Shown: positions 31,562 to 50,451 of the stretch, one piece after another
Numbering within the stretch: position 1 is the first letter of the stretch
How the letters are laid out: each line of letters opens with the position of its first letter
NCBI GenBank assembly: GCA_964344035.1
Contig: CAYFLK010000006.1
Location: 26,162-90,161 of the forward strand
From: an uncultured Pseudomonadota bacterium
GTDB taxonomy: Bacteria; SAR324; NAC60-12
Length of the DNA stretch: 64,000 nucleotides
Direction: 5' to 3'
Notes under the pieces: generated by a model
What the model saw: only the letters and a program-made list of their open reading frames with translations
What the model was told of the DNA's origin: nothing
Databases searched by the model: none
Made by a program: the position numbers and the translations under genes

Positions 31562-33391
31562 ATGGCAAAAAAACGGATCGAGTTTATGGACACGTCCTTC
31601 CGGGACGGATTTCAATCGGTGTTCGGAGCAAGAGTTGCAACCAAAGATTTCCTTCCTGCGCTGGAAGCGGCCGTTGATGCAGGGATCACTTATTTTGAGG
31701 CCGGTGGAGGGGCAAGGTTCCAAAGCCTGTTTTTCTATTGCAACGAATCCGCCTTTGACATGATGGACGCATTCCGCAAAACGGCGGGGCCGGATGCTGA
31801 TTTGCAGACCCTCGCACGCGGGATCAACGTGGTTGCGCTTAACCAGCAACCGCGGGACATGATCGATCTGCACGCGAAGATGTTCAAAAAACACGGCATC
31901 AGCGCCATCCGAAATTTTGACGCGCTCAACGATTTGCGAAACCTGAGCTATTCCGGGGAACGCATCGCGGCAAATGGACTGCATCACCAGATTGTGATCA
32001 CTATCATGGACCTCCCTCCAGGATGTGAAGGGGCCCATACCCCGGATCATTACATGCAGATGCTGAAGGACATCCTCGATTCCGACATCCCGTTTCATTC
32101 GATTTGCTTCAAGGATTCCAGCGGCACAACTCATCCGCGCAAAGTATATGAAACAATCAAGGCCGCGCGGAAGCTCGTGCCGGAGGACATGGTTCTGCAC
32201 CTGCACACTCACGACACCGCCGGTGTTGGGGTCAGCCAGTACATCGCCGCCATCGAGGCCGGAATCAACCGCATCGACCTGGCAATGAGCCCGGTCAGCG
32301 GGGGCACATCCCAGCCTGACACCCTCTCAATGTGGCACGCTCTGAGAGACAGCGATTACACACTCGATATTGATCCTGTGAAAATCATGCGCGTCGAGGA
32401 GGTTTTTGAAGACTGCATGGGCGATTATTTTGTCCCCCCGGAATCGAAAATGGTCTCTCCGGTGATACCTTTTTCTCCCATGCCCGGGGGAGCGCTCACT
32501 GCAAACACTATGATGATGCGTGATACCGGAACGATGCACCTCTACAATAAAGTTATCAAGGAGATGGAGGAAGTCATCCGCCTCGGTGGTTTCGGCACCT
32601 CGGTTACCCCTGTTTCACAGTTTTACTTCCAGCAGGCTTACCAGAATGTAACCGGGGGTCGCTGGCAGAAAATCACCCCTCAATACGGCAACATGGTGCT
32701 GGGCTACTTCGGCCGCACACCAGTCGAACCGGATCCGGAAATCGTCAAACTTGCATCGGAACAGCTTGATAAACCGGTCTTCAAAGAAGATCCACTGGAT
32801 ATCCTTGAAGATGGTAGGCCGAAGGCGGAAAAAGTCCTGCGGGAAAAGGGACTGGAAATAAATGACGAAAATGTCTTTATTGCCGCAAGTTGCGAAGGCA
32901 AGGGAATCGATTTCCTCCTCGGCAAGGGCCGGGACATGATCCGCAGGAAAAGCACGGAAGCGAAGAAAGCCGAAGCCGCGGCAAAACCGGCGCAGCCCTC
33001 TCCGGTTTCCGCGCCGGCCCCTGCAGCAGGGCCGCGCAACTACACAATCACAGTAAATGGTATGGCCTACCAGGTCAACGTGGCTGAAGGGGCCGGTGCG
33101 GTCGCAGCCACACCGGTTGCCGTCCCGGCAGCGTCGCCTGCTGCCGCACCCGTTGCCGCGCCTGCCGCAAACACGGCTGCTGAGACCGTCGATGCGCCGA
33201 CGCCGGGGAACATCATGCGCCTCGAAGTCGGCCTTGGAGAAGCAGTGGAAAAAGACCAGACGCTGCTGATCATGGAAGCAATGAAGATGGAATCGGAAGT
33301 TAAAGCCCCAAAGGCCGGGACGGTCCAGGAACTGTTCGTTGCCGCCGGCGACACCGTTCAGGCTGGTGACAAGCTGCTTTCACTAGCTTGA
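31562..33391 (+). CDS. oadA: oxaloacetate decarboxylase alpha subunit (carboxyltransferase 5S plus biotinyl domain)
   Basis: '[12 protein letters not shown]' HMGL-like carboxyltransferase motif; Ala/Pro linker; C-terminal biotinyl 'EAMKMESEV'. Confidence 0.9.
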
Positions 33392-33429
33392 CAAGAATCC
33401 CTTCCTTCATCTCAAATCGACTGGTTCGC

Positions 33430-34989
33430 ATGTCTGAAACAAAACGATCCTTCCCGTTCTGGGGGAACTGCCGGAGGCTGCGGCGGTTAATTCTCCTGGT
33501 CCTGGGAAGTTTCATGCTCGCAACCTCCGGCAGCGCGTTCGCTCAAACAATCCCGGACAAAATCACCATCACAGCAATGGGCGACCTGCTGGTGGAAGAA
33601 GTCCGTTTCCATGAAGGGGACCTGGTAGCGGCGGGAGACACGCTGGCAATCCTAAAACGGTCCGATGGGACAAAGCTGACCCTGCGCGCGGGGGATTCCG
33701 GACGGCTGCTGAAATGGGCGCTGAAACCCTATCAGCGCTTCCGCAACGGGGAAAAACTCGGCATCCTGCAGGTGATGCCGATCCTCGTACAAAAACCCGG
33801 TGTGTCCTCGCAAAAAGAACAGCCTTCCTTTCAGCAGATGATCTGGAACCTCGCCGGTTCGACCGGACTTGCCACCCTGGTCTCAGGGCAGGGGCTTTCC
33901 TGGACTGAAGGGTGGGGCCGCGTGGCTATGATGGGTGTTGGTCTGGCACTGCTTTTCCTGGGAATCAAAAAACGCTTTGAACCACTGCTGCTGGTACCGA
34001 TCGGGTTCGGCGCGTTTCTCGCAAACATCCCCGGGGCGGGGCTTTCGGAACCGGGAGGACTGCTTTTTTACGTCTATGAAATCGGCATCACCACCGGGAT
34101 CTTCCCCCTGCTCATCTTCATGGGGGTCGGTGCTTTGACGGATTTCGGTCCGATGCTGGCAAACCCCAAAACGGCGCTGCTGGGCGCTGCCGCGCAGTTC
34201 GGCATCTTCGCCACTCTGCTTGGCGCACTCGCGTTGAACTGGGTCCCGGGAATCGATTTCAGCTTGAGAGACGCGGCGTCAATCGGAATCATCGGAGGGG
34301 CCGACGGTCCGACCGCGATTTTTCTCTCCAGCCGCTTGTCGCCGAGGCTGCTGGGATCGATCGCGATTGCCGCGTATTCTTACATGGCCCTGGTGCCGAT
34401 CATCCAGCCGCCGATCATGCGGCTGCTCACTACTGAAGCCGAACGCCGTACCGAGATGCGCCAGATGCGTTATGTTTCGCGGCGCGAAAAAATTCTATTC
34501 CCGCTGTTGGCTGTCGGACTTTGCGCCTTGCTCCTGCCTACCGCCGCACCCCTGATTGGAATGTTCATGCTTGGCAACCTGGCCCGCGAATGCAGGGTGA
34601 TCGACCGACTTTCTGACACCATTCAGCACTCGCTGATCAACACCGTTACGATTTTTCTCGGTCTTGGAGTGGGCAGCAAACTGCTGGCCAGCCGCTTCCT
34701 CAACCTCGAAACGGTGGGGATCCTGCTGCTGGGGATGATCGCATTTGGCATCGGCACTGCTTCAGGCGTGCTGCTCGGGAAACTGATGAACCGCCTTTCG
34801 GAAGCGCCGATCAATCCGCTTATCGGCGCGGCTGGAGTTTCGGCGGTGCCAATGGCCGCTCGCGTGGTCAGCCAGGTGGGGCTGGAGGCGAATTCGCACA
34901 ACCATCTGATCATGCACGCGATGGGACCGAATGTTTCCGGAGTGATCGGTTCAGCGGTTGCCGCGGGGGTTCTGCTGGCGATGCTCTGA
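33430..34989 (+). CDS. oadB: oxaloacetate decarboxylase beta subunit (Na+-translocating) with an unusual ~140-aa N-terminal extension
   Basis: Canonical OadB core begins near 'MIWNLAG...[22 protein letters not shown]'; upstream in-frame signal-like peptide and lipoyl-like beta segment; ATG at 33430, TTG at 33388 overlapping the oadA stop. Confidence 0.85.
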
Positions 34990-37182
34990 CCCCTCTTCCC
35001 GTGAATTGATCAGGCAACCCGCACCCGCTTTCAGGGCTCTGCGTTTTGCGTGGAGAGTGGGTTCGGTATAGCCGTTAGCGACTTCCGCACCACTGAAGAT
35101 CAGCTCGCATGCGGCTGCAAAGGCGATCCCGTCAAATTCCGGGGCCATGTTGAAGTAGCCCGGGTCTCCAGCGTTTTGCCGGTCAACCACCTCCGCCATC
35201 CTTTTGAGGGACTTCATAACTTGTTCACGGGTTATGATCCCGTGCAGGAGCCAGTTGGCAATGTGCTGGCTGGAGATCCGCAATGTGGCCCGGTCCTCCA
35301 TGAGCCCAATGTCATTGATGTCCGGGACTTTTGAGCAGCCTACTCCCTGATCAACCCAGCGGACCACGTATCCGAGGATTCCCTGGCAGTTGTTATCAAG
35401 TTCCGCTTGAATCTCCTTTTCCGACCAGTCCGGGTCGGCTGCCAGGGGAATTGTGAGGATGTCGCCCAGTTGCGCGCATGGACTTCCTTGCAGTGATGCC
35501 TGCTTTTCCGCCACGTTAACCTTGTGGTAGTGCAGGGCATGCAGGGTCGCCGCGGTCGGAGAAGGCACCCACGCGCAGTTGGCGCCGGACCTAGGATGAC
35601 CGATCTTCGTTTTGACCATGGCAGACATTTCATCGGGCATCGCCCACATTCCCTTGCCTATCTGGGCCCGTCCCGGCAGCCCGCAGGCAAGTCCGACATT
35701 GACGTTCCATTCTTCGTAAGCGTTTATCCAGGGTTGGGCCTTCATGTCGTTCTTACGCACCATTGGTCCGGCATGCATGGAAGTGTGCATCTCGTCTCCG
35801 GTCCGGTCGAGGAATCCGGTGTTTATGAATATCACGCGTTCCCGCGCCTGCCGGATACACTCCTTGAGGTTGACCGTGGTGCGACGTTCCTCGTCCATTA
35901 TCCCCATCTTGATCGTGTTTTTTGCCATTCCCAATGCCTGCTCGATGCGTACGAAAAGGTCCGTCGTGAACGCCACTTCTTCCGGACCATGCATTTTCGG
36001 TTTTACGATATACATGCTCCCACATTTTGAGTTTTTGTACCGCCCTAACCCCTTCAAGTCATGCAGGCTGATCAGCGCGGTCATCATGCCGTCCAGGATC
36101 CCTTCCGGGACTTCGTCGCCGTTTCCCGTGAGCACTGCGTCACTTGTCATCAGGTGACCGACGTTCCGGACAAGCATCAGTGATCGCCCGGGCAGGGTCA
36201 GACCTTCACCCGCGGGAGTGGAATACACGCGATCGGTATTGAGGGTGCGGTGCAGGGAATCTCCTCCTTTCATGAAAGTAGCCGATAGGTCTCCCTTCAT
36301 CAGCCCGAGCCAGTTCCGGTAAACATGCACCTTGTCCTCCGCGTCCACGGCCGCCACTGCGTCTTCCAAATCCTGAATGGTGGTTACCGCTGATTCTACG
36401 ATCACGTCTTTGATTCCAGCGGGATGGTCCCTGCCGATTGGGTGGTTTCGGTCAATTTGAATGTCTATATGCAGACCGTTTTTTTTCAGCAGAACGGAAT
36501 CCGGGGTATTGCTCATTCCCTGCCAGCCTATGAACTGCTCCGGTTCGGCGAGCCGGGTCTGCGTACCGTCTTTCAGCAATACCGTCAAATCACCGTCCCT
36601 GACTGAAAATCCCGACGCTTCGGCAAAAGAACCCTGTGCTAGCGGAAATGAATCGTCCAGTACCCCGTGGGTGTAGTCAAATACTTTACGACCGCGTAGC
36701 GGGTTGTAACCTCCCTCCCGGGACGTTCCATCATCTTCGAAAATGACGTCCGTACCGTAAAGCGCATCAAGCAGGCTGCCCCAGCGTGCGTTGGCCGCGT
36801 TGAGCGCGAAACGTGCGTTGCTGACTGGGACCACCAGTTGCGGACCGGCAATTGCTGCGATCTCCGGGTCCACGTTATCGGTGCTGATCTGAAAATCTAC
36901 ACCCTCGGGTACAAGGTAGCCGATAGTTTCAAGAAAATCCCGGTAGGCTTCAGGATCGTGATGCATACCCTCACGGCTTCGGTGCCACTCGTCTATTTGC
37001 TGCTGCAGCCTGTCCCTTTTACCCAGCAGTTCCTCGTTTCGGGGCATAAAATCATGTACAATCCCTTTGAATGACTGCCAGAAACCATCAGGCTCGATTC
37101 CCGTACCGGGTGCAATCTCTTCCCGGACTAACGCGTAAAGGGGCTGCGCGACTTGTAAGCCGTCGATTTCTATCCGTTTCAT
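34951..37182 (-). CDS. glcB: malate synthase G
   Basis: 743 aa, full-length MSG pattern; 3' end overlaps the oadB 3' end by 39 nt. Confidence 0.9.
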
Positions 37183-37698: not shown

Positions 37699-38742
37699 TC
37701 AGTGCAGGGTTCGGTGTGGCAGGTTTTCGATTTTAGCCGCGGAGGTGACCCGCACGTAATCCAGTTTTCGCTGAAGTTCCTGTATCGTCGCGGCGCCGGC
37801 GTAAGTCAGTCCGGAACGCAGTCCACCGATGATGTCCGCGAGGATCGCGTCTTCCGTTTCACGGTATTCCACTTCCACCGAAATACCTTCCGCGGTTTTC
37901 CAATCCGCAAGGCCCCCATGATATTCATCATGGACCTCATTGCTGGCCATGCCTCGATACATTTTGACCCGGGATTCCCGTCCGTCCTCCAGGGTTTTGC
38001 TGATCACTTCCCCGGGAGTGGGTCGCGTTCCGGCAAGAATGCTGCCGATCATCACGAAATCCGCCCCAAAGGCGAGGGCCTTGACAATGTCGCCCGGATT
38101 GCGGATGCCGCCGTCAGCCACCACCGAGCGGTCTACCCGGGAGCAGTCCTTGACGGCAGTGAGGTTCGGCACCCCGAACCCGGTTTTTATCCTGGTGGTG
38201 CAGACCGATCCTCCGCCGATGCCGACCTTGACGATGTCCGCCCCGCAGGAAGCAAGATAATCCGCGCCGGCGTAGGTGGCCACGTTTCCCGCCATCAGGC
38301 AGGTTTCCTTGCCGAGCAGGTCACGGATATTTTTCAAGGTCCTTCCGACGTATTTCGCGTGGGCATGGGCGACATCGACACAGAATTTATCCGCCTTCGC
38401 GTCCCGCAACGCCTCCGCTCTTTGCAGGTCTTCTTCCGTGCAGCCGAGGGAGACAAAAGTGTCATGGCTGCAGGCTTTGAACATGCGCACATTCTCTTCA
38501 ATCGGCATGAACCGGTGCATCACCCCGATCCCCCCCTTGGCGCCGATGTAATTGGCCATATTCGTTTCGGTGATGGTGTCCATGTTCGAGGTCATCACCG
38601 GCAGCGCGAGAGACAATTTCCCGGTTTTGTCGGTGATCGAGACATCAACGACTTTCCTCGATTCCCAGTGGTTGTAGGACGGCACAAGCAGCACGTCATC
38701 GTAGGTGATCGCATCAGTCATGAGGTCTCCCGTAATGTGCAT
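37699..38742 (-). CDS. guaC: GMP reductase (IMPDH/GMPR family without CBS domains)
   Basis: 347 aa; 'ADIVKVGIGGGSVCTTR' and 'DGGIRNPGDIVKALAFGADFVMIGSILAG' align with E. coli GuaC. Confidence 0.85.
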   Translation of the reverse strand: MHITGDLMTDAITYDDVLLVPSYNHWESRKVVDVSITDKTGKLSLALPVMTSNMDTITETNMANYIGAKGGIGVMHRFMPIEENVRMFKACSHDTFVSLGCTEEDLQRAEALRDAKADKFCVDVAHAHAKYVGRTLKNIRDLLGKETCLMAGNVATYAGADYLASCGADIVKVGIGGGSVCTTRIKTGFGVPNLTAVKDCSRVDRSVVADGGIRNPGDIVKALAFGADFVMIGSILAGTRPTPGEVISKTLEDGRESRVKMYRGMASNEVHDEYHGGLADWKTAEGISVEVEYRETEDAILADIIGGLRSGLTYAGAATIQELQRKLDYVRVTSAAKIENLPHRTLH

Positions 38743-38764: not shown

Positions 38765-39253
38765 TTATTTTCCGTTCCGCCGGCAATACCCCAAAGGCAA
38801 TATGGTAGTACCTTTCAGTTCTTCTAGCAAGATGCTCGATTTGACGGAAACAACGCTTGGGAGGGAAAGCAGACGTTTCAGCACAAGGTCCGAAAAATCT
38901 TGAAGGTCAGGCGCCACCACCCGCATCAGATAGTCCGCGCCCCCGGTGATGGCCCAGCAGCCCAGCACCTCCTCCCAGTCCCGGATGGCTTCGGAAAATG
39001 AACGGGCGGGGTCCTTGCCGTGCTTTCCCAGTGTCACCTGAATGAAGGCCTGGATTCCGATTCCCACCGCCCCGGGTTCCAAAAGGGCCGCGTAGGAACG
39101 GATCACGCCTGACTGCTCCAGCCTGCGGACACGGCGCAGGCATTGTGAAGGCGAGAGGAAAACCCGCGCGGATAGTTCGCTGTTGGTCAGACGTCCCTGC
39201 CCTTGAAGCTCGGCGAGGATGTTGAGATCGTATTCATCGCATTTGTATGACAT
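38765..39253 (-). CDS. Lrp/AsnC family transcriptional regulator
   Basis: 'LDLNILAELQGQGRLTNSELSARVFLSPSQCLRRVRRLEQSGVI' helix-turn-helix plus RAM domain; start at MSYKC. Confidence 0.85.
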   Translation of the reverse strand: MSYKCDEYDLNILAELQGQGRLTNSELSARVFLSPSQCLRRVRRLEQSGVIRSYAALLEPGAVGIGIQAFIQVTLGKHGKDPARSFSEAIRDWEEVLGCWAITGGADYLMRVVAPDLQDFSDLVLKRLLSLPSVVSVKSSILLEELKGTTILPLGYCRRNGK

Positions 39254-39435
39254 GATTCTCCAATTACAACAACAATTATGAAAGATTCGTGCATATATTA
39301 TCCTGCACAAACAAAGAACACAATCTTCTGCCGTGGAATTTCTGTTATGCTTGAATGCAACACAAATACATATCGCATCGGCCTTCAGGGTTTGGAACAT
39401 TCTTTTCGTCAACAACACCGTTTAAGGAGAACAGC

Positions 39436-41013
39436 ATGATTCTGGATGGAAACACGTTAACGCTAAAGCAAGTCGTGCAAATGGCCCGAAATCCGGGAAT
39501 GCGGGTGGAAATATCCGCAGAGATCGAATCTCGGGTGCGGGCATCCCGGGAACTGCTCGACGGTTTTGTCGATTCAGGAAGGGTGATTTACGGGGTCACC
39601 ACCGGTGTCGGGGGGTTCGTCAACTGGCTCGTTCCGCCGAATCTTGCCGAACAGCTGCAGAACAACATCCTGCGTGGGGTCACCTCAAACGTGGGAGCAT
39701 ACCTCGGGGACGATTATGTGCGTGCGGCCATGCTGGCACGCCTGAACTCACTGGGACGCGGAGTTTCAGCGATTTCATTCAAAAACTTTCGCAAGTATGT
39801 TGACCTTTACAATGCAGGCATTCTTCCCTGCATCCCGGAAAAAGGATCGCTTGGGGCCAGCGGGGACCTGGGACCGCTTGCTTACATCGCCCTGGTCGGG
39901 ACCGGTAACTGGCTGGCCAAATACGATGGAGCAATACGCCCCGGCAAAGAAGCACTCGAGATGGCGGGACTCGAGCCGATGCGGTTGAGTTACAAGGAGG
40001 GGCTGGCGCTGATCAACGGAACTTCGGCTATGACCGGGGTCGCAGCGTGCGTCACCGAGGACGCGAAACAGCTAATCCGGAACTGCCTGCTGATTTCCAG
40101 CCTGAGCATAGAAACGCTGAAGGGCAAGATCATGCCGTTCCATCCGGCCGCACACGAAAACAAACCGCATCCGGGACAAATGAAAGTGGCAGAGATCATT
40201 TACGAGGTCCTTTCCGACAGCAAGATGGTGGTTCAAGACGCTGAGGTTGAACGCTGGCTGCAGCAGTTGAAACGGGATGAACCAACCGGGATGGAACAGC
40301 AGATTGAAGATCCTTACACTATCCGGGCCACTCCGCAGATACTTGGACCGGTGGTCGACACCGCGCTCTCAGTGCAAAATACGCTCGAGACCGAACTTAA
40401 TTCCACCAATGACAACCCTCTCGTGGTGGTCGAACGCGGAGAGGCTTACCACAACGCCAACTTTCACGGGCAGTATGTTGCCAACGCAATGGATCAGCTT
40501 TCGATTGTGCTGACGACCATGTGCAACCTCTCCGACCGCAGAACGGATCGTTTCCTCGATCCCGGTCATAATCATGGGCTGCCCCCGTTTCTGTGTAGGG
40601 AAAACCCTGGGCTGCGTCATGGCATGATGGGAGGTCAGTATGCTGCCACTTCACTGACCGCGGAAAACCGTTCGCTTTGCACGCCCGTTTCAATTCAGAC
40701 CCTGCCCTCCACTGGAGATTTTCAGGACCATGTTTCATTTGGACTGGTCGCGGCACGGCGTGCACGGGAAATCCTGCAGAATTCCTATTACGTGCTTGCC
40801 TATGAATTGCTGTGCGGATGCCAGGCCGCGGACTGCCGGAACCCCGGCGAACTTGGTTCCGTCACCTCCAAGGTGTACCGCAAGGTGCGCGAAGTAATCC
40901 CATACCTCGATCATGACGAGTCGCTCACAATCCATATCGAGAATGCGGCAAGGATACTGCGCGAAAGGATCCTCCTCAAGCAGTTTCCGGATGATTTGAT
41001 TGATATAGGATAG
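39436..41013 (+). CDS. MIO-dependent aromatic amino acid / histidine ammonia-lyase family enzyme
   Basis: 'GSLGASGDLGPL' Ala-Ser-Gly MIO motif; AAGGAGA RBS before the ATG at 39436. Confidence 0.85.
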   Translation: MILDGNTLTLKQVVQMARNPGMRVEISAEIESRVRASRELLDGFVDSGRVIYGVTTGVGGFVNWLVPPNLAEQLQNNILRGVTSNVGAYLGDDYVRAAMLARLNSLGRGVSAISFKNFRKYVDLYNAGILPCIPEKGSLGASGDLGPLAYIALVGTGNWLAKYDGAIRPGKEALEMAGLEPMRLSYKEGLALINGTSAMTGVAACVTEDAKQLIRNCLLISSLSIETLKGKIMPFHPAAHENKPHPGQMKVAEIIYEVLSDSKMVVQDAEVERWLQQLKRDEPTGMEQQIEDPYTIRATPQILGPVVDTALSVQNTLETELNSTNDNPLVVVERGEAYHNANFHGQYVANAMDQLSIVLTTMCNLSDRRTDRFLDPGHNHGLPPFLCRENPGLRHGMMGGQYAATSLTAENRSLCTPVSIQTLPSTGDFQDHVSFGLVAARRAREILQNSYYVLAYELLCGCQAADCRNPGELGSVTSKVYRKVREVIPYLDHDESLTIHIENAARILRERILLKQFPDDLIDIG

Positions 41014-41358
41014 GGATTCAAGCTACTGTTTTTTTGCAAATCAGGATTGTCAGTTAAATCCGGTCTTTGCCAGCGAATCGATTCATTTAGCATCGCATTC
41101 CTCATAATTGCGGTCGAAGGGTAGCAATCTATCCGCGAGTACGCACGTTCCCTAACCACGGACCTCTCCCGGGGGGCACCAACACAACAATAAAGGCAAC
41201 CGCAAGAACTTGTTTCCGGACACCAACGCAGATTCCACTGTACACGGCATACCTGTAATTCATACCAAATGCCACACCCTCTCCTTGGAGAGAGGGTTGG
41301 GGTGAGGGGCAAACCGCGCTTAAACGTGACCGTAGAATTTACTCCATGGCATTAAACT

Positions 41359-42246
41359 CTATCCACCTGGAAAGGTGGAATAATCCGGGACCACCGACAA
41401 ATCTTCAAAACCGTGGTTTAGAAAGTGCTCATGGATCCGGATCATTTGAGCAACCGGCATTTCAACGTATTCAAGTCCGCGTTCCCGGACCCCGTGTCTG
41501 CGGAAACCGATCAGTTTCAGCCGCGGGAGCGGATCCAGAGTACTCAACCACCGCGCGGTTCGGTTGAGCAGTTCCTCATCATCGTTGACCCCGGGAATCA
41601 GCAATAGTCGCACCTCGTGAAGTTTCCCCTGCTCATGCCAGAACCGGATCGCCCGCTGAACCATCTCGTTGTCGTCTCCGGTGAGCTGCCGGTGGATATC
41701 CCCATCCAGCGATTTAAGGTCTATCATCACCCCGTCGGTTAGCGGCTGAAGGGATTGCCAAACGGACAGCTCCGCGATGCCGTTGGTATCGATGAAGGTG
41801 GTCAAGCGCGAAAGGCGCGGTTCGTTGCGGAGGGCCTCGAACAACGCCCTGACAAATTGCGGCTGCCGCGCAGCTTCCCCGCCGGAAACGGTGATTCCGG
41901 ATAAAAACGGCGCCACCCGAATAATCCTCTTCAGCAGGGCTTCTACTTCCAGCCACTGGGCGTGTGGAGTACTGTCAATGGGGCAGACTTCAAGGCAGGT
42001 ATCGCAATACCGGCAGAGGGAGGGTTCCCAGTCGATCCCGCCGTTTTCGGGCGCCCAGCGCAGCGCCTTTGCCGGGCATTCATCAACGCAGATTCCGCAA
42101 AGGTTGCAGGTCCCGATAGTGTGCGGGTTGTGACAGGTTATGCAGTTCAGATTGCATCCCTGCATGAAAACCACGAAACGGTTGCCCGGTCCGTCAACCG
42201 CGCTAAACGGCAGGGTGCGGTTCACCAACCCGCGGATTGCGTTCAT
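41359..42246 (-). CDS. glycyl-radical enzyme activating protein, YjjW-like (radical SAM with ferredoxin insert)
   Basis: 'GPGNRFVVFMQGCNLNCITCHNP' radical SAM cluster plus 'CNLCGICVDECP...CRYCDTCLEVCP'; 295 aa. Confidence 0.85.
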   Translation of the reverse strand: MNAIRGLVNRTLPFSAVDGPGNRFVVFMQGCNLNCITCHNPHTIGTCNLCGICVDECPAKALRWAPENGGIDWEPSLCRYCDTCLEVCPIDSTPHAQWLEVEALLKRIIRVAPFLSGITVSGGEAARQPQFVRALFEALRNEPRLSRLTTFIDTNGIAELSVWQSLQPLTDGVMIDLKSLDGDIHRQLTGDDNEMVQRAIRFWHEQGKLHEVRLLLIPGVNDDEELLNRTARWLSTLDPLPRLKLIGFRRHGVRERGLEYVEMPVAQMIRIHEHFLNHGFEDLSVVPDYSTFPGG

Positions 42247-43768
42247 GATTGAGCACCCGTTTGACCCTGCGTTTTTCGACTCCCTGGTTTTTCACCGATC
42301 CCGCGCCAAGCACGGTGCTTTGGTAACGAGAACCCCGTTTTTCAAATTCCACCACGTCTGATTTTCGCACGAGATAGCCGGTGACGCGGATGAAATCATT
42401 GCTCGTCAGGTTGAAAGTAAAATCACGCATACCGAGGGTGAATGCTCCACGGAGGATGTCAAGTACGGCCTCCGGGTTGCGCTTCACCGTGTCGTCGAAG
42501 TGGAAAATATCACTGATTCCCGCATCAAAAAGGCGGTGATGCGGGGCCACCGCCAGCAGATGTTCATGCAGTTCCGGTTCAGTGCCGATCGGAACACGGG
42601 TTCCGGCGGTGACGTTTATGTCGAGGTCGATCCCGGACTGCGAATGCAGAAACGCGTGGTTCCCGTTTCCCGCGCAGTAGGGCAGTTCTGCGGATTGAAG
42701 CAGTTCCTTGACGCGTTCCGTGATGCGGTATGAAAGCCGGTTTGCTTCCTCGTCATGGCCGTATCTGCCGGGCCTGCCCCGCGAGGCCATCAGTTCCTCG
42801 ACCGCTTCCGCCAGTCCGTAAATGCCGAACATCGCGGAAAACCGGGAGAGGTGCAGCAGACCCTCCTGGACGAGAAAACTGTGTTCGAAAAAACGTGAAC
42901 CTTCCACCAGGCAAAGGATCCTCGCTTCCATTAGCTCCAGCGTCAGGCGGACGTACAGCGGCAGAGTTTCCGTCAGGAAGGCATCGAAATCACCGCTGTG
43001 TGAAAGCGCCGTTTCCTTCAGGTTCAGCCGGGAAAGCGTGTAGGAGCCGCCTCCGATTTTCAGCGAGTTATAACAGCTGACAACGCCATATTCCCGGCCC
43101 AGGTCCGCGACCATCATCGGGTGATTGACAAAATGCGGTTTACCCACCGCAAACACGGTATGGATGCCGTCCAGGATTAACTCATTGGGAGTGATTTCCG
43201 GATCGACTTTGAGGGTGATGTTTGGCGCCACCTGCCCGAGTTCTCGTTCAATCCGGAAAACAGCCCTTGCCGTGCTGCTGTCATGGGGACCGAGGTTCAC
43301 GTGTACAAACGCATCCGGCAGCAGCCGGTCAATCATGATCCAGAAACGCCTGAGCGTAGTATAAAGCTGCTCATCGGACACCTGATCTAGATAGGGCGCC
43401 AGCAGCACGTCCAGGTCACCAAGGTACACGGGGAAACCCGTGATCGAAGGAGTCTGTGTGTAAAGGATGAGGAGAAAATCGAGGGCTTCCTGCAAATCTT
43501 TCGGAGGTCCCAGCTCGAGAAACGGAGAGCCCTGACGAAGAGCCTTCGCGTAGTCCGGAAGCAGATATCGTGGACGATGCGGGGCGGGACCTTCATGCAT
43601 GTCGCAGATGATCCCCCGTGCCATGGCGTCTTTCAGTTCCGGGGACAGCTTGGGATAGTCAAGAAGACCCTCAGCCTGACATGCGAGCTGATGCATTCGC
43701 TGCTTGTAGCTCAAACTCGAATTGTTGACAATGCCGCGGGTTTGTTCCTTTATGGTCTGCAGTTGCAT
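42203..43768 (-). CDS. YjjI-family (DUF3029) putative glycyl radical enzyme
   Basis: 521 aa (E. coli YjjI is about 516 aa); C-terminal 'FIRVTGYLVRK' resembles the RVSGY glycyl-radical motif; directly upstream of the YjjW-type activase. Confidence 0.75.
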   Translation of the reverse strand: MQLQTIKEQTRGIVNNSSLSYKQRMHQLACQAEGLLDYPKLSPELKDAMARGIICDMHEGPAPHRPRYLLPDYAKALRQGSPFLELGPPKDLQEALDFLLILYTQTPSITGFPVYLGDLDVLLAPYLDQVSDEQLYTTLRRFWIMIDRLLPDAFVHVNLGPHDSSTARAVFRIERELGQVAPNITLKVDPEITPNELILDGIHTVFAVGKPHFVNHPMMVADLGREYGVVSCYNSLKIGGGSYTLSRLNLKETALSHSGDFDAFLTETLPLYVRLTLELMEARILCLVEGSRFFEHSFLVQEGLLHLSRFSAMFGIYGLAEAVEELMASRGRPGRYGHDEEANRLSYRITERVKELLQSAELPYCAGNGNHAFLHSQSGIDLDINVTAGTRVPIGTEPELHEHLLAVAPHHRLFDAGISDIFHFDDTVKRNPEAVLDILRGAFTLGMRDFTFNLTSNDFIRVTGYLVRKSDVVEFEKRGSRYQSTVLGAGSVKNQGVEKRRVKRVLNHERNPRVGEPHPAV

Positions 43769-44088
43769 GTTTTATCCCTGAAATATTCGGACCCTGTATA
43801 AAAGATTTACGTTTCAGTCATTCTGGTCCGCGATCACATCATTCTAAACCAACTTTCATCATGCGGCAATGCAGTATCGAGGTAAAGCTGATGCAAAACA
43901 GACGCTGTCCATTTTCAACCCTCGGATTTATTGTGAGCGACTTGCGATTTTTGCTGTTCCTCAACACTCTAACCGGAGAATGAACATCTTCATCTACTTG
44001 TGCCAGTCTATACTGATTTCATGTGTGTCGCACGCAGACACGTCAAAAAAGACAGACAGCACCAATCACTTTCAACATTAACATTATA

Positions 44089-45339
44089 ATGCATCAAAAC
44101 GTTGTAACCGCTCCGGAACAAGCCGCATCCGGCCTGATGAAAATCGAATGGGTAAAACGTAACATGCCGATCCTCCGTCAGCTGGAAAAAGAGTTCTGCG
44201 AAGAACAGCCGTTCGCGGGCAAACGGGCGCTGGTTTGTGTTCACCTCGAGGCCAAAACCGCCTTCCTGGCGCTGACGCTCAGGTCTGGAGGTGCGACGGT
44301 CGCTGTCACCGGCAGCAACCCTGAATCGACCAAGGATGATGTGGTCGCAGCCCTTGCGCAAGAAGGGCTGCACGTCTACGCCCGCCGCGGCGCATCCGCG
44401 GAGGAAATGCGCCGGTACATGGGGCTGGCCCTGGACATCGAACCGAACGTGGTGATAGACGACGGCGGAGACATCGCCGAACTGCTGCATGAAACGCGCC
44501 CCGAACTGCTACCGGAAGTTTATGGAGTGTGCGAGGAAACCACCTCCGGAGTGCTGCGCGCCAGGGCCCGGGCGGATGCGGGACTGCTCGCGTTCCCGGT
44601 AATGCTGGTCAACGAGGCGCGTTGCAAGTACCTCTTCGACAACGTGCACGGCACCGGACAATCGGTCTGGGACGGGGTGATGCGCGCGACAAACCTCGTG
44701 CTGGCCGGAAAAACTGTTGCGATTGTCGGTTATGGCTGGTGCGGAAAAGGATGCGCGATGCGTGTGCAGGGACTGGGCGCGCGGGTGATAGTGTGCGAGG
44801 TAGATCCGGTCAAGGCCGCGGATGCGCTGATGAACGGATGCCGGGTGATGCCTCTTCACGATGCATGCGCGCAGGCGGACGTCATCCTAACCGTCACCGG
44901 AATCCGACACACTATTCGCCGGGAACATTTCCGCTTGATGAAAGACCACGTCCTGTTGGCAAACGCAGGACATTTCTGGGACGAAATCGACATCGAATCC
45001 CTGCAAACGCTGGCAGTCGAATCATATGAAATGAGGACCAACGTTCATGGGTTCCGGATGCCCGACGGACGCTGGCTGCATCTGCTCGGAGGCGGAAACA
45101 TCGTCAACATTTCCTGCGCGGACGGACACCCCGCGGAGATCATGGACACCAGTTTCGCACTCCAGGCCTTGTGTGCCAGGCACATCGTACAAAACGCCGG
45201 AAAACTGGAAAACACGGTATACCCTGTCCCGGCGGAAATCGATGAACGCGTCGCCCACCTAAAGCTAGAAGCCGCGGGCGTTTCCATCGACTCCCTGACT
45301 GAGGACCAGCTGCAGTACCGCTCTGGCTGGCAGACATGA
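44089..45339 (+). CDS. ahcY: adenosylhomocysteinase
   Basis: NAD-binding 'VAIVGYGWCGKGCA' and overall SAHH pattern; about 416 aa from MHQNV. Confidence 0.9.
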   Translation: MHQNVVTAPEQAASGLMKIEWVKRNMPILRQLEKEFCEEQPFAGKRALVCVHLEAKTAFLALTLRSGGATVAVTGSNPESTKDDVVAALAQEGLHVYARRGASAEEMRRYMGLALDIEPNVVIDDGGDIAELLHETRPELLPEVYGVCEETTSGVLRARARADAGLLAFPVMLVNEARCKYLFDNVHGTGQSVWDGVMRATNLVLAGKTVAIVGYGWCGKGCAMRVQGLGARVIVCEVDPVKAADALMNGCRVMPLHDACAQADVILTVTGIRHTIRREHFRLMKDHVLLANAGHFWDEIDIESLQTLAVESYEMRTNVHGFRMPDGRWLHLLGGGNIVNISCADGHPAEIMDTSFALQALCARHIVQNAGKLENTVYPVPAEIDERVAHLKLEAAGVSIDSLTEDQLQYRSGWQT

Positions 45340-45431
45340 ATATCCCCAATTGTCGGGTTACACTACGCTAACCCGACCTACGATTCAACATTTGCGGTCA
45401 ACGCGTAGCGCGAGAACGATTATAACTCCCA

Positions 45432-46745
45432 ATGAACCTGCTGATTAAGAATGCGACCATCATCACCGTCAACGCGCGGGACGAAATTTTGGTCGGATCT
45501 GATCTTGCCGTATGCGGAAAGCGGATTGTCGGGGTGGGTAAGGCGCCGGATGATTTTCAGGCGGACCGTGTTATTGACGGGCGCGGACGCTTGGTCATGC
45601 CGGGGCTGATAAACGCGCATACGCATTTGGCGATGACGCTGATGCGAAACTACGCGGACGACCTGCCTTTCTGGTCATGGCTGATGGAAAAGGTGAAACC
45701 CCTGGAAGACCACCTCAGCGCAGAGGACGTCCACCACGGGGCAAAACTGGGGATTGCGGAAATGGTCCGCGGCGGGACTACCTGTTTTCATGACATGTAC
45801 TTCTTCATGGACGAGGTCGCGTGCGCGGTTTCCGAATCCGGCATCCGTGCCTGCCTGAGCGGGGCGCTGTTCGATGTGTCCGGGACTGGCGAGAGGCTTC
45901 TTGGCGATGCGTGTCAACTGCACAGGGAATGGCACGGAAGTGCTGATGGAAGAATCAGCGTGCGCCTTGGACCGCATTCCCCGTACCTCTGCAGTCCGGA
46001 ATACCTGCGCGAAATCAGAGAGGAGGCGCTGCGTCTGGAATGCGGACTTCACATGCATGTTTCCGAAAGCCGCAAGGAAGTCGTGGACAGCATCGAACAG
46101 CACGGGAAGAGCCCCGTCCGGCATCTTGCCGAACTGGAGATGTTCGACTGCCCGACCCTCGCCGCGCATGCGCTGCATGTGGACACGGAAGACCTTGCCC
46201 TGCTTTCCCGAAACAGTGTGCATGTTTCGCATAATCCCACGAGCAACCTCAAACTTGCCAACGGGTTTGCCCCGGTGACGAAAATGATGGAAGCCGGGAT
46301 CAACGTCGCCCTCGGCACTGACAGCGCAGCGAGCAACAACAACCTCAACCTGTTCGAGGAAATGCACCTCGCGGCGCTGCTCGCTAAGGCTGTCGATGAA
46401 GACGCGAGCGCCCTGCCCGCTGAGCAGGCGTTACGGATGGCGACCATCAACGGCGCACGCGCGCTTGGACTGTACGAGGAAATCGGGTCGCTTGAAGTCG
46501 GCAAGAAGGCCGACCTGATCATGCTTGACACGCGAAAACCCCACCTTGTTCCGCTACACAATCCGCTTGCTTTGATTGTGTACTCGGCTCAGGCAGCTGA
46601 TGTGGAAACGGTAATCATCGATGGACGGACGGTCATGGAAAACCGGGAACTGCTCACGCTTGACGAAACCGGCCTGCTTGGTGAAACATCAAGGCAAGCC
46701 GTGGATTTCGTGCGGCGGTCACGAAAACGAGACGGTCTTCGCTGA
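45432..46745 (+). CDS. mtaD: 5'-methylthioadenosine / S-adenosylhomocysteine deaminase (amidohydrolase)
   Basis: 'PGLINAHTHLAMT' metal-binding HxH; 437 aa; canonical MtaD N-terminus. Confidence 0.88.
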   Translation: MNLLIKNATIITVNARDEILVGSDLAVCGKRIVGVGKAPDDFQADRVIDGRGRLVMPGLINAHTHLAMTLMRNYADDLPFWSWLMEKVKPLEDHLSAEDVHHGAKLGIAEMVRGGTTCFHDMYFFMDEVACAVSESGIRACLSGALFDVSGTGERLLGDACQLHREWHGSADGRISVRLGPHSPYLCSPEYLREIREEALRLECGLHMHVSESRKEVVDSIEQHGKSPVRHLAELEMFDCPTLAAHALHVDTEDLALLSRNSVHVSHNPTSNLKLANGFAPVTKMMEAGINVALGTDSAASNNNLNLFEEMHLAALLAKAVDEDASALPAEQALRMATINGARALGLYEEIGSLEVGKKADLIMLDTRKPHLVPLHNPLALIVYSAQAADVETVIIDGRTVMENRELLTLDETGLLGETSRQAVDFVRRSRKRDGLR

Positions 46746-46889
46746 ACTCAACCCGCTTGACTGTTCCAGGCCGTATCCCTTAGCATCACTGTTCCCTGGA
46801 CCAGTTTTCATAACCATGCATGGTGCTTCCAGACCACGGGTATTTGGAGCTGGACCTGGATTGAATCAACTCTTATACGGAGAAATATC

Positions 46890-47918
46890 ATGTATTTCAT
46901 TAAAATATCGCGCTTTGTTGTCACGGCTTTGCTGGCTCTTCCCCTGCTTCTGTGCACTGCCTCGGCAGTACCGCTGAAGGTTGGCCTGGTGGCGGATTAC
47001 GCGGGATTGAATGACCGCAGTTTCAACCAGATAACTTACGAAGGCCTGGTGCAGGCGGAAAAGGAACTGAGCATCAAGGGCACCGCGGTGGTGGCAAAAA
47101 ACAACACGGATTACCTGCCAAACATGGTGCGCTTCGCACGCGGCGGCTATGACCTGGTGATCGGGGTCGGATTTTTCATGACTGATGCGATCAAGGAAGC
47201 TGCGCAGCAGTATCCGGAAACCAAGTTTCTCCTCATCGATATGCCTATTGACGGGATCCCGAACCTGAGCACCGCCATCTTTGCCTCGCAGGAAATTGCG
47301 TTTCTGGCCGGGGCTTTGTCCGCGCTGGTTGACCAGGACAAGAGCATCGACCTGCCTATACGTCACAACGGGGTCCTCAGCATCGTCGCCGGCGCGCAGA
47401 TTCCACCGGTGGATATCTATATGGCCGGGTATTTTCAGGGCGCGAAGCACATCAACCCTGAGATCAAGGTTCTGTACGGGTACACCGGCACTTTTGGCGA
47501 CCCTGCGGCAGGCAAGCAGTTTGCGCTTTCACAGCACAGCAAGGGTTCCGACATCGTCTATCAGCTCGCGGGAGGAACTGGTCTGGGCGTTATCCAGGCC
47601 TCGAAAGAAAGTAATTTTCTCTCTATCGGCGCGGATTCCGACCAGGCATACCTTGCACCGCAAAACGTGCTGACAAGCACCAGCAAACTCTGCAATGTCG
47701 CGGTGTATTCCACCATTGAACGCATGCTGAAAAACGATTTTCCTTCCGGGGTCGTGCTTTACGACCTGAAAAGCGGAGGGGTCGATATCAGCCCGGTCCA
47801 CAAAGCGGTGCCGGGCTACATTGTTGACCGCGTAGAGCAGATCAAGTCCGAGATCATTTCCGGGAAGATTCAGGTCGGCATTGAAATCCCTGCCTGGGCG
47901 AAGCAGCAGAACCAGTGA
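46890..47918 (+). CDS. BMP-family ABC transporter substrate-binding protein (second copy)
   Basis: Signal peptide; BMP pattern; homologous to 21602-22660. Confidence 0.85.
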   Translation: MYFIKISRFVVTALLALPLLLCTASAVPLKVGLVADYAGLNDRSFNQITYEGLVQAEKELSIKGTAVVAKNNTDYLPNMVRFARGGYDLVIGVGFFMTDAIKEAAQQYPETKFLLIDMPIDGIPNLSTAIFASQEIAFLAGALSALVDQDKSIDLPIRHNGVLSIVAGAQIPPVDIYMAGYFQGAKHINPEIKVLYGYTGTFGDPAAGKQFALSQHSKGSDIVYQLAGGTGLGVIQASKESNFLSIGADSDQAYLAPQNVLTSTSKLCNVAVYSTIERMLKNDFPSGVVLYDLKSGGVDISPVHKAVPGYIVDRVEQIKSEIISGKIQVGIEIPAWAKQQNQ

Positions 47919-49426
47919 ACCTCCCCCGACCGGTCCTGGAAACTTCAGGACTGGTGAAGTCATTCCAGGGGGTACGTGCTCTGGATGGTGTGGATTTCGA
48001 TCTCCTTCCTCGCGAAGTGCATGCCGTTCTTGGAGAAAACGGCGCGGGGAAATCCACGCTGATGAACCTGCTTTACGGGTTGCTGCGCCCCGATACAGGT
48101 AAAATGACACTGTGGGGCAGGCCCTACCACCCATCATCACCCCGGGAAGCCAGCGTTCTCGGGGTGGGGATGGTGCACCAGCATTTCATGCTGATCCCGG
48201 ACCTTAGCGTCGCTGAGAATATCTCCCTCGGAGTTGAATCCGGGAACGCCCTCATACTTGACCTGAAAACCACCGCTCGGCACATCCGCGAACTTTCCGA
48301 AAAATACGGGCTTCCGGTCGATCCATGGGCCAGGGTGGCGGACCTTGGGGTCGGAATGAGGCAGCGGGTGGAAATCATCAAGGCGTTTTACCGGCACGCA
48401 AAACTGCTGATCCTCGATGAACCGACGGCCCTGCTCACTCCACAGGAAAGCCGCGAACTGTTCAAGGGTTTGCAGTCCTTCGTGGAACAGGGAATGCCGG
48501 TGGTGTTGATCAGCCACAAACTGGAGGAAGTACGCGAAATCGCAGAACGCATCACCGTCTTGCGACAGGGTTGTAAAATCGGCACGGTAAGTGCGGAAGA
48601 TACCACCCCGAGGGAACTGGTGCGCATGATGGTCGGGCGGGAAATCTCGACCCGGCTGAAACGCGAAACAGAAGCGGGCAACGGTGAAATCCTGAAAGTT
48701 GAAGGACTTTCGCTGACAGGATTGCAGCCCCTGAGTTTCTCTCTAAAGCGGGGGGAAATCCTGGCCATTGCCGGAGTGGAGGGTAACGGACAGGAACCGC
48801 TTGTCAACGGACTCACCGGAAGCATGCCCGCCCGGGGAAAGGTGTCCCTGGACGGGAAGCCGATAGAAGGGGCATCCGTCCGCCGACGTCGAGAATCAGG
48901 TTTGAACTGGGTGCCGAGCGACCGTCAGCAAGAAGGACTGGTGCTTTCCATGTCCGTTGCTGAAAACCTTGCATTGAGGGAATATTACCAACCGCCGTTT
49001 TCCTACCGGGGATGGCTGAATTTGAAATCGATTGCAAGGATGGCCTTGAACGCGGTGCGCAGTTTCGACGTCCGTCCTCCGCTAGTGGGGGTACCTGTGC
49101 ACTCTCTGTCCGGAGGCAACCAGCAGAAAGTTGTGGCCGCCCGCGAACTGCTGGCTAATCCGAAAGTGCTGCTGGCAAGTCAGCCCACAAGGGGTCTGGA
49201 TATCGGCGCTGAGGAATTTGTACACCGGCAGCTGCTGCGGCTGCGTCATCAGGGATGCGGCATTCTGCTCGTTTCTTCTGATCTGGATGAGATCCTGGAA
49301 CTGTCAGACCGCATCGCGATTCTCCACCGAGGGAAATTAATGGGAGTTGTAGAGCGAAAAAATGCCGTGCGGGAAGAAATCGGGATGCTGATGATGGGCA
49401 GAAAACCTGAAAACCGGGGTTCATGA
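47915..49426 (+). CDS. ABC transporter ATP-binding protein with two ABC domains
   Basis: Walker A 'GENGAGKST' and a second 'GVEGNGQE'; 'LSGGNQQK' signature; 503 aa. Confidence 0.9.
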   Translation: MNLPRPVLETSGLVKSFQGVRALDGVDFDLLPREVHAVLGENGAGKSTLMNLLYGLLRPDTGKMTLWGRPYHPSSPREASVLGVGMVHQHFMLIPDLSVAENISLGVESGNALILDLKTTARHIRELSEKYGLPVDPWARVADLGVGMRQRVEIIKAFYRHAKLLILDEPTALLTPQESRELFKGLQSFVEQGMPVVLISHKLEEVREIAERITVLRQGCKIGTVSAEDTTPRELVRMMVGREISTRLKRETEAGNGEILKVEGLSLTGLQPLSFSLKRGEILAIAGVEGNGQEPLVNGLTGSMPARGKVSLDGKPIEGASVRRRRESGLNWVPSDRQQEGLVLSMSVAENLALREYYQPPFSYRGWLNLKSIARMALNAVRSFDVRPPLVGVPVHSLSGGNQQKVVAARELLANPKVLLASQPTRGLDIGAEEFVHRQLLRLRHQGCGILLVSSDLDEILELSDRIAILHRGKLMGVVERKNAVREEIGMLMMGRKPENRGS

Positions 49427-50451
49427 AACTAGCACGGGAACTGGCATGGGCCGCCGCGGCCATCCTGCTGGCGTTCCTAATCGGCGGCATCCTGACGGCA
49501 TTTTTCGGACATGACCCGGTTGAAGCATATCGTATGCTGCTGCTTGGGGCATTCGGAACCGGGTTTGACGTCGCCACAACTTTTGCCGCGGCGCTCCCGC
49601 TGGTGTTTACCGGACTGTCCGTTGCCGTGGCCTTTCAATGCGGTCTTTTCAATATCGGCGCCTCAGGGCAGTTCTGGCTGGGCGGAATCGCCGCGGCGTG
49701 GATCGGCTACTCGGTCCAGCTGCCGGCGTTTCTCCACTGCCTGCTCGCACTGTCCGGAGCCGCCGCCGCGGGCGCGCTGTGGGCGCTGGCGATCCCGGGA
49801 TTGACTAAAGCCTACCGTGGGGCGAACGAAGTGATCACCACTTTGATGATGACCTACATCGCCGTTGAACTGGGGCATTTTCTGCTGGAAAAAGGTCCGA
49901 TGCAGGGACCGGGATTTTCCCCGGAATCTCCGAAAATCCTTGCATCCGCGGTCCTGCCGAAGCTGGCGCCGGGGACCCAGCTTTCATGGGGAGTATGGTT
50001 CGCGCCACTGGCGGCGATTCTGGTCTGGTTGCTGCTATACCGGACTACGCTCGGATTCACGCTGCGGATGACGGGCGCCAATCTTTCAGCAGCCCGCTAC
50101 GCGGGAGCAAATCCCGCACTGGCGATTATCGCCGCTCTCGGGATCAGCGGGGCGGTCAGCGGGTTTGCCGGAGGCATGCAGATTCTCGGAGTGGACCACC
50201 GGCTATACGACAGTTTTGACCTCGGTTATGGTTTTACCGGGATCGTCGTCGCCCTTCTCGGCAGGAACCACCCATTCGGGGTGTTACCCGCCGCGCTGCT
50301 TTTCGGCGCCCTCGACAACGGCGCTAACTCCATGCAGATTTTCGCCGAAGTCCCCGCGAATCTGGCTGATGTGATCAAAGGAATCATCATCATCTTCATT
50401 GCTGCGGAAGGTCTGTCGCGTTATTTTCGGGTTCCCGGTTTTAGGGATTGA
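49423..50451 (+). CDS. ABC transporter permease (BMP/nucleoside-type)
   Basis: 342-aa polytopic membrane protein; ATGA overlap with the ATPase stop. Confidence 0.85.
   Translation: MKLARELAWAAAAILLAFLIGGILTAFFGHDPVEAYRMLLLGAFGTGFDVATTFAAALPLVFTGLSVAVAFQCGLFNIGASGQFWLGGIAAAWIGYSVQLPAFLHCLLALSGAAAAGALWALAIPGLTKAYRGANEVITTLMMTYIAVELGHFLLEKGPMQGPGFSPESPKILASAVLPKLAPGTQLSWGVWFAPLAAILVWLLLYRTTLGFTLRMTGANLSAARYAGANPALAIIAALGISGAVSGFAGGMQILGVDHRLYDSFDLGYGFTGIVVALLGRNHPFGVLPAALLFGALDNGANSMQIFAEVPANLADVIKGIIIIFIAAEGLSRYFRVPGFRD

Follow-up and report, generated by a model that had tools for sequence, protein, structure and literature searches.

What does the glycyl radical enzyme YjjI act on, and can the genes next to it tell? 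YjjI and its activase YjjW are among the few glycyl radical systems of Escherichia coli to which no substrate is assigned, and a genomic context pointing to one would be valuable. A candidate context is found in a 64,000-nucleotide stretch of contig CAYFLK010000006.1 (assembly GCA_964344035.1) from an uncultured bacterium of the SAR324 lineage; we call this whole stretch the window. In its segment 38765-43768 a yjjI-yjjW pair faces a gene for an enzyme of the 4-methylidene-imidazole-5-one (MIO) type, which is itself paired with a gene for an Lrp/AsnC-family regulator. The preliminary description of the locus proposed that these genes form one anaerobic catabolic module in which the radical enzyme uses the product of an ammonia-lyase. 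The analysis reported here leads to a different answer. Very probably two independent genetic units abut at this position: yjjI-yjjW is a self-contained operon, the Lrp/AsnC-MIO unit is separate from it, and their juxtaposition has no functional meaning.

Organization of the locus

The segment contains four real genes, located where the preliminary description had placed them (Table 1). The first 44 nucleotides of yjjW lie within the 3′ end of yjjI (42203-42246). The MIO gene is convergent to yjjW, with a 345-bp spacer in between, and divergent from the regulator gene, which confirms the arrangement first described. The most likely start of the MIO gene is the ATG at 39436, which is preceded by AAGGAG and yields a protein of 525 amino acids; this length agrees with relatives of 526 amino acids and with one gene call (P0241), while other gene callers chose a later start giving 510 amino acids. 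The regulator starts at 39253 (162 amino acids). With both starts corrected, the overlapping open reading frames (ORFs) of 552 and 217 amino acids considered previously prove to be over-extended, and a divergent intergenic region of 182 bp separates the two genes.

Three assemblies, each from a different sample of project PRJEB17505 (L001, L002 and L177), run across the junction between the MIO gene and yjjW and are 99.96-100% identical to the window in nucleotide sequence, so that the gene order is genuine and no artefact of assembly. In a fourth assembly (L003) just yjjI and a portion of yjjW are covered. The adjacency of the MIO gene and yjjW was found only in four near-identical assemblies of one population.

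Table 1. Coordinates of the features discussed in the text (window positions unless a locus is named).
Feature	Position	Strand	Description
Regulator gene	38765..39253	-	Lrp/AsnC-family transcription regulator, 162 aa
Divergent control region, regulator/MIO gene	39254..39435	.	AT-rich, 182 bp
MIO gene	39436..41013	+	AdmH-like MIO aromatic amino-acid aminomutase/ammonia-lyase, MIO1 orthologue, 525 aa
MIO-yjjW convergent spacer	41014..41358	.	345 bp; 8-bp perfect inverted repeat 41276-41297
yjjW	41359..42246	-	YjjW-family radical-SAM activase, 295 aa
Ferredoxin-like insert of YjjW	41983..42108	-	Two CX2CX2CX3C motifs; PF12838, PF13237, PF13187
Radical-SAM cluster motif of YjjW	42133..42156	-	C31-x3-C35-x2-C38; PF04055
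yjjI	42203..43768	-	YjjI-family glycyl radical enzyme, 521 aa
Glycyl-radical loop of YjjI	42365..42388	-	R461-V-T-G464-Y-L-V-R468; G464 codon 42377-42379; from alignment A1 and predicted model
Cys loop of YjjI	43061..43081	-	V230-S-C232-Y-N-S-L236; C232 codon 43073-43075; putative thiyl-radical cysteine
Intergenic region, yjjI/ahcY-deaminase-Bmp ABC cluster	43769..44088	.	Divergent; presumed yjjI promoter region
MIO module of relatives, examples	L084 7448-14052; L088 5645-11577; L091 4231-9584

The glycyl radical enzyme YjjI and its activase YjjW

The 521-amino acid protein had been attributed to the YjjI family by its length and a C-terminal motif. Profile searches bear this out: it matches TIGR04040 with 688.8 bits (cutoff 498.3) over profile positions 2-497 of 497, and PF11230 end to end with 658 bits. 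We aligned it with 16 homologues from several phyla that share 58-66% identity (alignment A1, 17 sequences in all). Mean column identity across A1 is 74%, which is unusually high. The RVTGY motif noticed in the preliminary description is a genuine glycine loop (FIRVTG464YLVR in the window protein), in which R461, T463, G464, Y465, L466, V467 and R468 are invariant in A1 and V462 is the sole residue that varies. In the predicted model G464 lies in the turn that connects strands 459-462 and 465-468. It pairs in an ungapped alignment with G465 of E. coli YjjI, a residue labelled in vivo by a radical probe (bioRxiv 10.64898/2026.08.13.742689).

A second loop, VSC232YNSL, is likewise invariant in A1. 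Its putative thiyl-radical cysteine C232 is predicted to sit at the tip of a beta-hairpin, in the turn between strands 227-230 and 234-237, and aligns to C384 of NrdD (E 0.0013) and to C419 of PflB (E 0.32), both through weak hhalign matches. The protein has five cysteines only (positions 30, 55, 232, 286 and 365) and none in the segment 366-521. Invariant polar residues, among them R67/Y68, D72/Y73, H156, H212/H216, N234, H375/S376/Q377, H410/H411 and R448, would line the pocket. The predicted model shows the ten-stranded alpha/beta barrel of the superfamily that unites glycyl radical enzymes and ribonucleotide reductases. A search of PDB sequences with the YjjI profile found no relative, and hence no YjjI structure for comparison. 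Judged by sequence, YjjI is a compact, separate branch of the glycyl radical superfamily and the window protein an ordinary member of it; the locus is thus a new member of a known, substrate-orphan family. Our search of the literature on YjjI, YjjW and DUF3029 found no functional characterisation, only FNR activation, co-expression with nar and the radical-probe labelling.

The activase assignment, including the ferredoxin insert, also stands. YjjW matches TIGR04041 with 319.7 bits (cutoff 250.2), as well as the radical S-adenosylmethionine (SAM) domain PF04055, the 4Fe-4S dicluster domain PF12838, PF13237 and PF13187. Besides the CX3CX2C motif of the radical-SAM cluster it carries the two ferredoxin-like motifs C47xxC50xxC53xxxC57 and C78xxC81xxC84xxxC88.

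By analogy with the activases of other glycyl radical enzymes, YjjW would reductively cleave SAM, and the 5′-deoxyadenosyl radical so formed would take a hydrogen atom from residue G464 in YjjI, leaving a stable glycyl radical there. This radical could then be relayed to C232, on a finger loop presumed to face G464 within the ten-stranded barrel of the ribonucleotide reductase/pyruvate formate-lyase (PFL) type, and the C232 thiyl radical would abstract hydrogen from a small substrate under anoxia. Homology, backed by the labelling report, leads us to infer radical formation and relay; the family assignment, motifs, predicted fold and obligatory pairing are documented here.

Genomic neighbourhood of yjjI-yjjW

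We surveyed 160 YjjI loci, 80 taken from genomes of GTDB species representatives and the other 80 from metagenomes; 2 kb or more of sequence is available past yjjW in 102 of them and upstream in 116. In every locus with sequence downstream of YjjI (152 of 152), YjjW comes next on the same strand; the remaining eight loci break off at a contig edge. Neither the MIO enzyme nor the Lrp-type regulator has a homologue in any of the 160 loci, even at E ≤ 1, and GuaC-like proteins, malate synthase and OadAB are absent from them as well. Unbiased clustering of all ORFs of the 80 genome loci revealed no conserved partner except YjjW. The next real cluster, an FtsE-like ATP-binding cassette (ABC) ATPase, is present in 16 loci of 80 and looks like actinobacterial synteny. 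Two larger clusters were dismissed as antisense shadow ORFs. The survey quantifies yjjI-yjjW as an invariable two-gene cassette that has no other conserved partner; it is spread over Actinomycetota, SAR324, Verrucomicrobiota, Deinococcota, Bacillota and Enterobacteria.

Two sets of individual loci deserve mention; they belong to the nearest relatives of the window YjjI, and their neighbouring genes are unrelated to those seen here. The nearest YjjI relative (P0002, 66% identity) is encoded by a cassette flanked by toxin-antitoxin genes: ParE/Phd and TacA/TacT-like pairs bracket its yjjI-yjjW (L178 206-730 and 3911-4691; L179), which suggests that mobile or variable regions can harbour the cassette. 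In the locus of a SAR324 metagenome-assembled genome (L004, 12592-17580) and its metagenomic twin (L094, 8685-13740) a gene for a FAD-linked oxidase follows yjjI-yjjW, as confirmed in both. It precedes, in L004, genes for a Gate-domain membrane protein, a 2-oxoglutarate-Fe(II) oxygenase and an amidohydrolase (Pfam-checked); the like order in L094 was judged from matching ORF sizes only. This set of neighbours is specific to the lineage.

The survey bears on a nucleoside-related role, in which YjjI would be an NrdD-like radical enzyme on a nucleoside, nucleotide or SAM-by-product substrate, loosely tied to salvage genes. NrdD is the best structural match of the YjjI model, and nucleoside-related genes lie divergently from yjjI: deoCABD in E. 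coli and, in the window, ahcY together with genes for an MtaD/DadD-like deaminase and a Bmp nucleoside ABC transporter. Yet such neighbours are found at about 4% of loci, with no evident enrichment: none of the 160 loci has a homologue of AhcY or a full-length one of the deaminase, the latter being represented by three short deaminase-like fragments only; Bmp/ABC genes are sporadic, with Bmp proteins in 4 of 160, and homologues of E. coli Deo and of YjjU/V occur in only 1-2 of 160. In addition, YjjI is devoid of the ATP-cone and of the C-terminal four-cysteine zinc site, its identity to NrdD is about 16%, and PFL-type enzymes score nearly as well in structural comparison. On balance we consider this role improbable.

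A function in anaerobic nitrogen-oxide or nitrate-respiration physiology appears very improbable. It is suggested by the direct activation of E. coli yjjI by FNR (PMC3688515) and by its biclustering with narGHJI in E. coli and Salmonella (PMC3228777), expression data that fit an oxygen-sensitive anaerobic function. The support is co-expression, however, and any radical enzyme sensitive to oxygen would be expected to be activated by FNR. Among the scanned window proteins around yjjI none has a nar or nir function, the 80 clustered loci show no conserved neighbour of any kind, and the FNR-like box upstream of the window yjjI is not significant.

The MIO enzyme and its regulator

The protein encoded convergently to yjjW matches PF00221 with 549 bits over profile positions 1-466 of 466 and has its MIO-forming ASG triad at residues 141-143 (39856-39864), in GSLGASGDLGPLA. 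Its description as a histidine or aromatic ammonia-lyase holds for the MIO/ASG enzyme class and fails for the histidine ammonia-lyase (HAL). The latter identity was rejected because the score against the HutH model TIGR01225 (469 bits) is below the cutoff of 539.15 and AdmH ranks far higher both as a model and in the PDB, where the best match is AdmH (3unv, 562 bits versus about 270 for HAL). The best NCBIfam model is TIGR04475 (AdmH, D-beta-Phe forming) with 743.2 bits, below the equivalog cutoff of 800. By sequence the enzyme thus resembles an AdmH-like aromatic amino-acid aminomutase or ammonia-lyase, without being a certified AdmH equivalog. A relative from the cluster at 82% identity is named by NCBI as a D-beta-Phe forming phenylalanine aminomutase.

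The regulator has HTH_AsnC and AsnC_trans_reg domains (PF13404, PF13412, PF01037). It scores 118.7 against the model of true Lrp, below the cutoff of 233, and is hence not an Lrp equivalog. From its divergent position it would control the AdmH-like aminomutase or lyase gene. A gene for a 347-amino acid protein of the IMP dehydrogenase (IMPDH)/GMP reductase family, on the same strand (37699-38742), starts 22 nucleotides downstream of the regulator gene and is probably co-transcribed with it; the protein is below the IMPDH and GMP reductase cutoffs and has no CBS insert. This pairing is absent from the loci of relatives described next.

Close relatives of the MIO enzyme (82%, 77% and 67% identity) were viewed at ten genomic places. 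They belong to a module of marine bacteria in which an AsnC/Lrp regulator gene is divergent from a first MIO gene (MIO1), followed by genes for a class III aminotransferase and for a paralogous second MIO enzyme (MIO2); genes for an AMP-binding CoA ligase, a thiolase or an HbpS-like protein are often nearby. The divergent regulator-MIO arrangement is kept in 10 of 10 loci, and YjjI or YjjW is found within 8 kb in none of them. The window enzyme is the MIO1 orthologue, with 76-78% identity to Lrp-adjacent MIO1 versus 66-73% to the MIO2 copies, and its regulator is 60-68% identical to those paired with MIO1. Neither the aminotransferase and MIO2 nor the ligase and thiolase were found in the whole window, and the 345-bp spacer between the MIO gene and yjjW has no pseudogene remnants of aminotransferase or MIO2. 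As far as gene content can tell, the window unit is a reduced form of the module, with regulator and MIO1 only. The pairing with the regulator, together with the aminotransferase and second MIO enzyme of relatives, suggests a catabolic role for the MIO enzyme. The complete module could constitute an aminomutase-to-beta-transaminase route for aromatic amino-acid catabolism, its class III aminotransferase being of the beta-amino-acid type. A literature search found no description of this Lrp-MIO-aminotransferase-MIO module, and its recognition is a useful by-product of the survey.

These results weigh on the proposal that YjjI uses, under anaerobic conditions, what the MIO enzyme makes (urocanate, cinnamate, coumarate or a beta-amino acid) and forms one catabolic module with this enzyme and the Lrp-type regulator. 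The genes are indeed adjacent in this population, as the independent assemblies confirm, and the window MIO enzyme is deprived of its usual downstream partners, so that another enzyme must handle its product. The neighbourhood of ammonia-lyase, YjjW and YjjI on which the proposal was built is nevertheless not conserved in relatives, whether viewed from YjjI (160 loci) or from the MIO enzyme (10 loci), and the adjacency does not recur in any second lineage. In the SAR324 metagenome-assembled genome GCA_014382365.1 the two units are unlinked, YjjI-YjjW being encoded on contig JACNJW010000033 and the MIO module on contig JACNJW010000028. The MIO gene and yjjW are convergent across their spacer and thus share no transcript. 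E. coli K-12 has yjjI-yjjW but is not known to have a hut or phenylalanine ammonia-lyase-type MIO enzyme. Finally, the very high conservation of YjjI across phyla argues for a common substrate. The proposal is left with extremely little probability and finds no support as a single anaerobic catabolic module.

Functional interpretation

The evidence favours the reading that two independent units abut in the window. The cassette travels across phyla in the company of no other conserved gene and its protein is highly conserved, which argues that YjjI probably acts on a common cellular metabolite rather than on anything that a neighbouring gene's enzyme produces. Three points weigh against this reading. 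An adjacency seen in a single lineage is compatible with a functional recruitment specific to that lineage. The window MIO enzyme has lost its aminotransferase and MIO2 partners, and its product needs another fate in the organism. No YjjI chemistry is positively excluded, and the radical relay is deduced from homology and a predicted model. The main alternative, which we regard as unlikely, is that YjjI would be a stripped-down NrdD-like enzyme on a substrate of the nucleoside, nucleotide or SAM-by-product type or, less likely still, that this lineage recruited YjjI for the orphaned MIO product. Under the reading of two abutting units the window locus gives no new handle on the YjjI substrate. 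It offers no sound basis for anaerobic assays with urocanate, cinnamate or coumarate, and this lead is closed.

Flanking clusters and intergenic sequences

A cluster on the forward strand (44023-50451), divergent from yjjI, codes for adenosylhomocysteinase (AhcY), an MtaD/DadD-like amidohydrolase, a Bmp-family lipoprotein, an ABC ATPase and a permease. The best models for the amidohydrolase are N-ethylammeline chlorohydrolase and TRZ/ATZ hydrolase; models of 5′-deoxyadenosine deaminase and of methylthioadenosine/S-adenosylhomocysteine (MTA/SAH) deaminase also match, and all these matches are below cutoff. The cluster looks like one for salvage and uptake of nucleosides or SAM by-products. It echoes the position of deoCABD beside yjjI in E. 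coli, yet is not conserved across YjjI loci. At 31562-37182, genes for the alpha subunit (with a biotinyl domain) and the beta subunit of oxaloacetate decarboxylase adjoin the one for malate synthase G, which puts a Na+-pump decarboxylase beside an enzyme of the glyoxylate cycle.

In the presumed promoter region of yjjI one sigma-70-like match (43869-43841, reverse strand) is no better than chance, and the FNR-like box at 43951-43964 has two mismatches and is indistinguishable from background. An Rfam scan of the 38-45 kb region found no riboswitch or other RNA. No terminator-like site was predicted in the convergent spacer, and counts of promoters and terminators are at chance level region-wide. 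The spacer holds at 41274-41310 a G/C-rich element, ACCCTCTCCTTGGAGAGAGGGTTGGGGTGAGGGG, with an 8-bp perfect hairpin and no T-tract; it may be a repetitive extragenic palindromic (REP)-like element or a terminator hairpin that lacks the T-tract.

Comparison with known systems

The closest known counterpart of the cassette is E. coli yjjI (b4380; DUF3029/TIGR04040/PF11230) with yjjW (b4379; TIGR04041). The window YjjI is 46% identical to the E. coli protein over its full length. The two systems have in common the glycine loop RVTGY.VR, the cysteine loop VSCYNSL, the order yjjI-then-yjjW with overlapping stop and start, and an activase with a ferredoxin insert. They differ in the neighbouring genes, which are deoCABD (divergent from yjjI) in E. 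coli versus the ahcY-deaminase-Bmp ABC cluster and the MIO unit in the window, and in a short C-terminal extension that the window YjjI has, unlike the E. coli protein.

Class III ribonucleotide reductase (NrdD; PDB 9d3x, 8p23 and 4u3e) is the best structural match of the predicted YjjI model, at the low identity given above, and PFL-type enzymes score almost as well. YjjI, with 521 amino acids versus 640-710 for NrdD, has neither the NrdD ATP-cone nor the four-cysteine zinc site before the glycine loop, and YjjW is PFL-activase-like with a ferredoxin insert, unlike the NrdG-like activase of NrdD. None of the NrdD models matches YjjI at E ≤ 1e-3 and the hhalign probability is 18%, which leaves YjjI outside the NrdD family. 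It is likewise outside the PFL-like enzymes, having no match to PF02901 or PF01228 and aligning to PflB in hhalign with an E value of 0.32. Compared with PFL-type glycyl radical enzymes (PflB, PflD, HypD, IslA, CutC and HplG) it is about 250-300 residues shorter, and it has a single cysteine (SCYN) where PFL has a Cys-Cys pair. The GCVE motif of the eliminases is likewise absent from YjjI.

The known system closest to the window MIO enzyme is the phenylalanine 2,3-aminomutase AdmH/PaPAM of Pantoea agglomerans (3unv, TIGR04475). The catalytic tyrosine lies in a VIYGV context, as in AdmH. Both have small hydrophobic residues, G-V in the window enzyme versus A-V in AdmH, at the positions where tyrosine ammonia-lyase has H-L and HAL S-H. 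The genetic setting differs: AdmH belongs to the andrimid biosynthetic cluster, whereas an Lrp/AsnC regulator gene accompanies that of the window enzyme, joined in relatives by genes for a class III aminotransferase and a second MIO paralogue.

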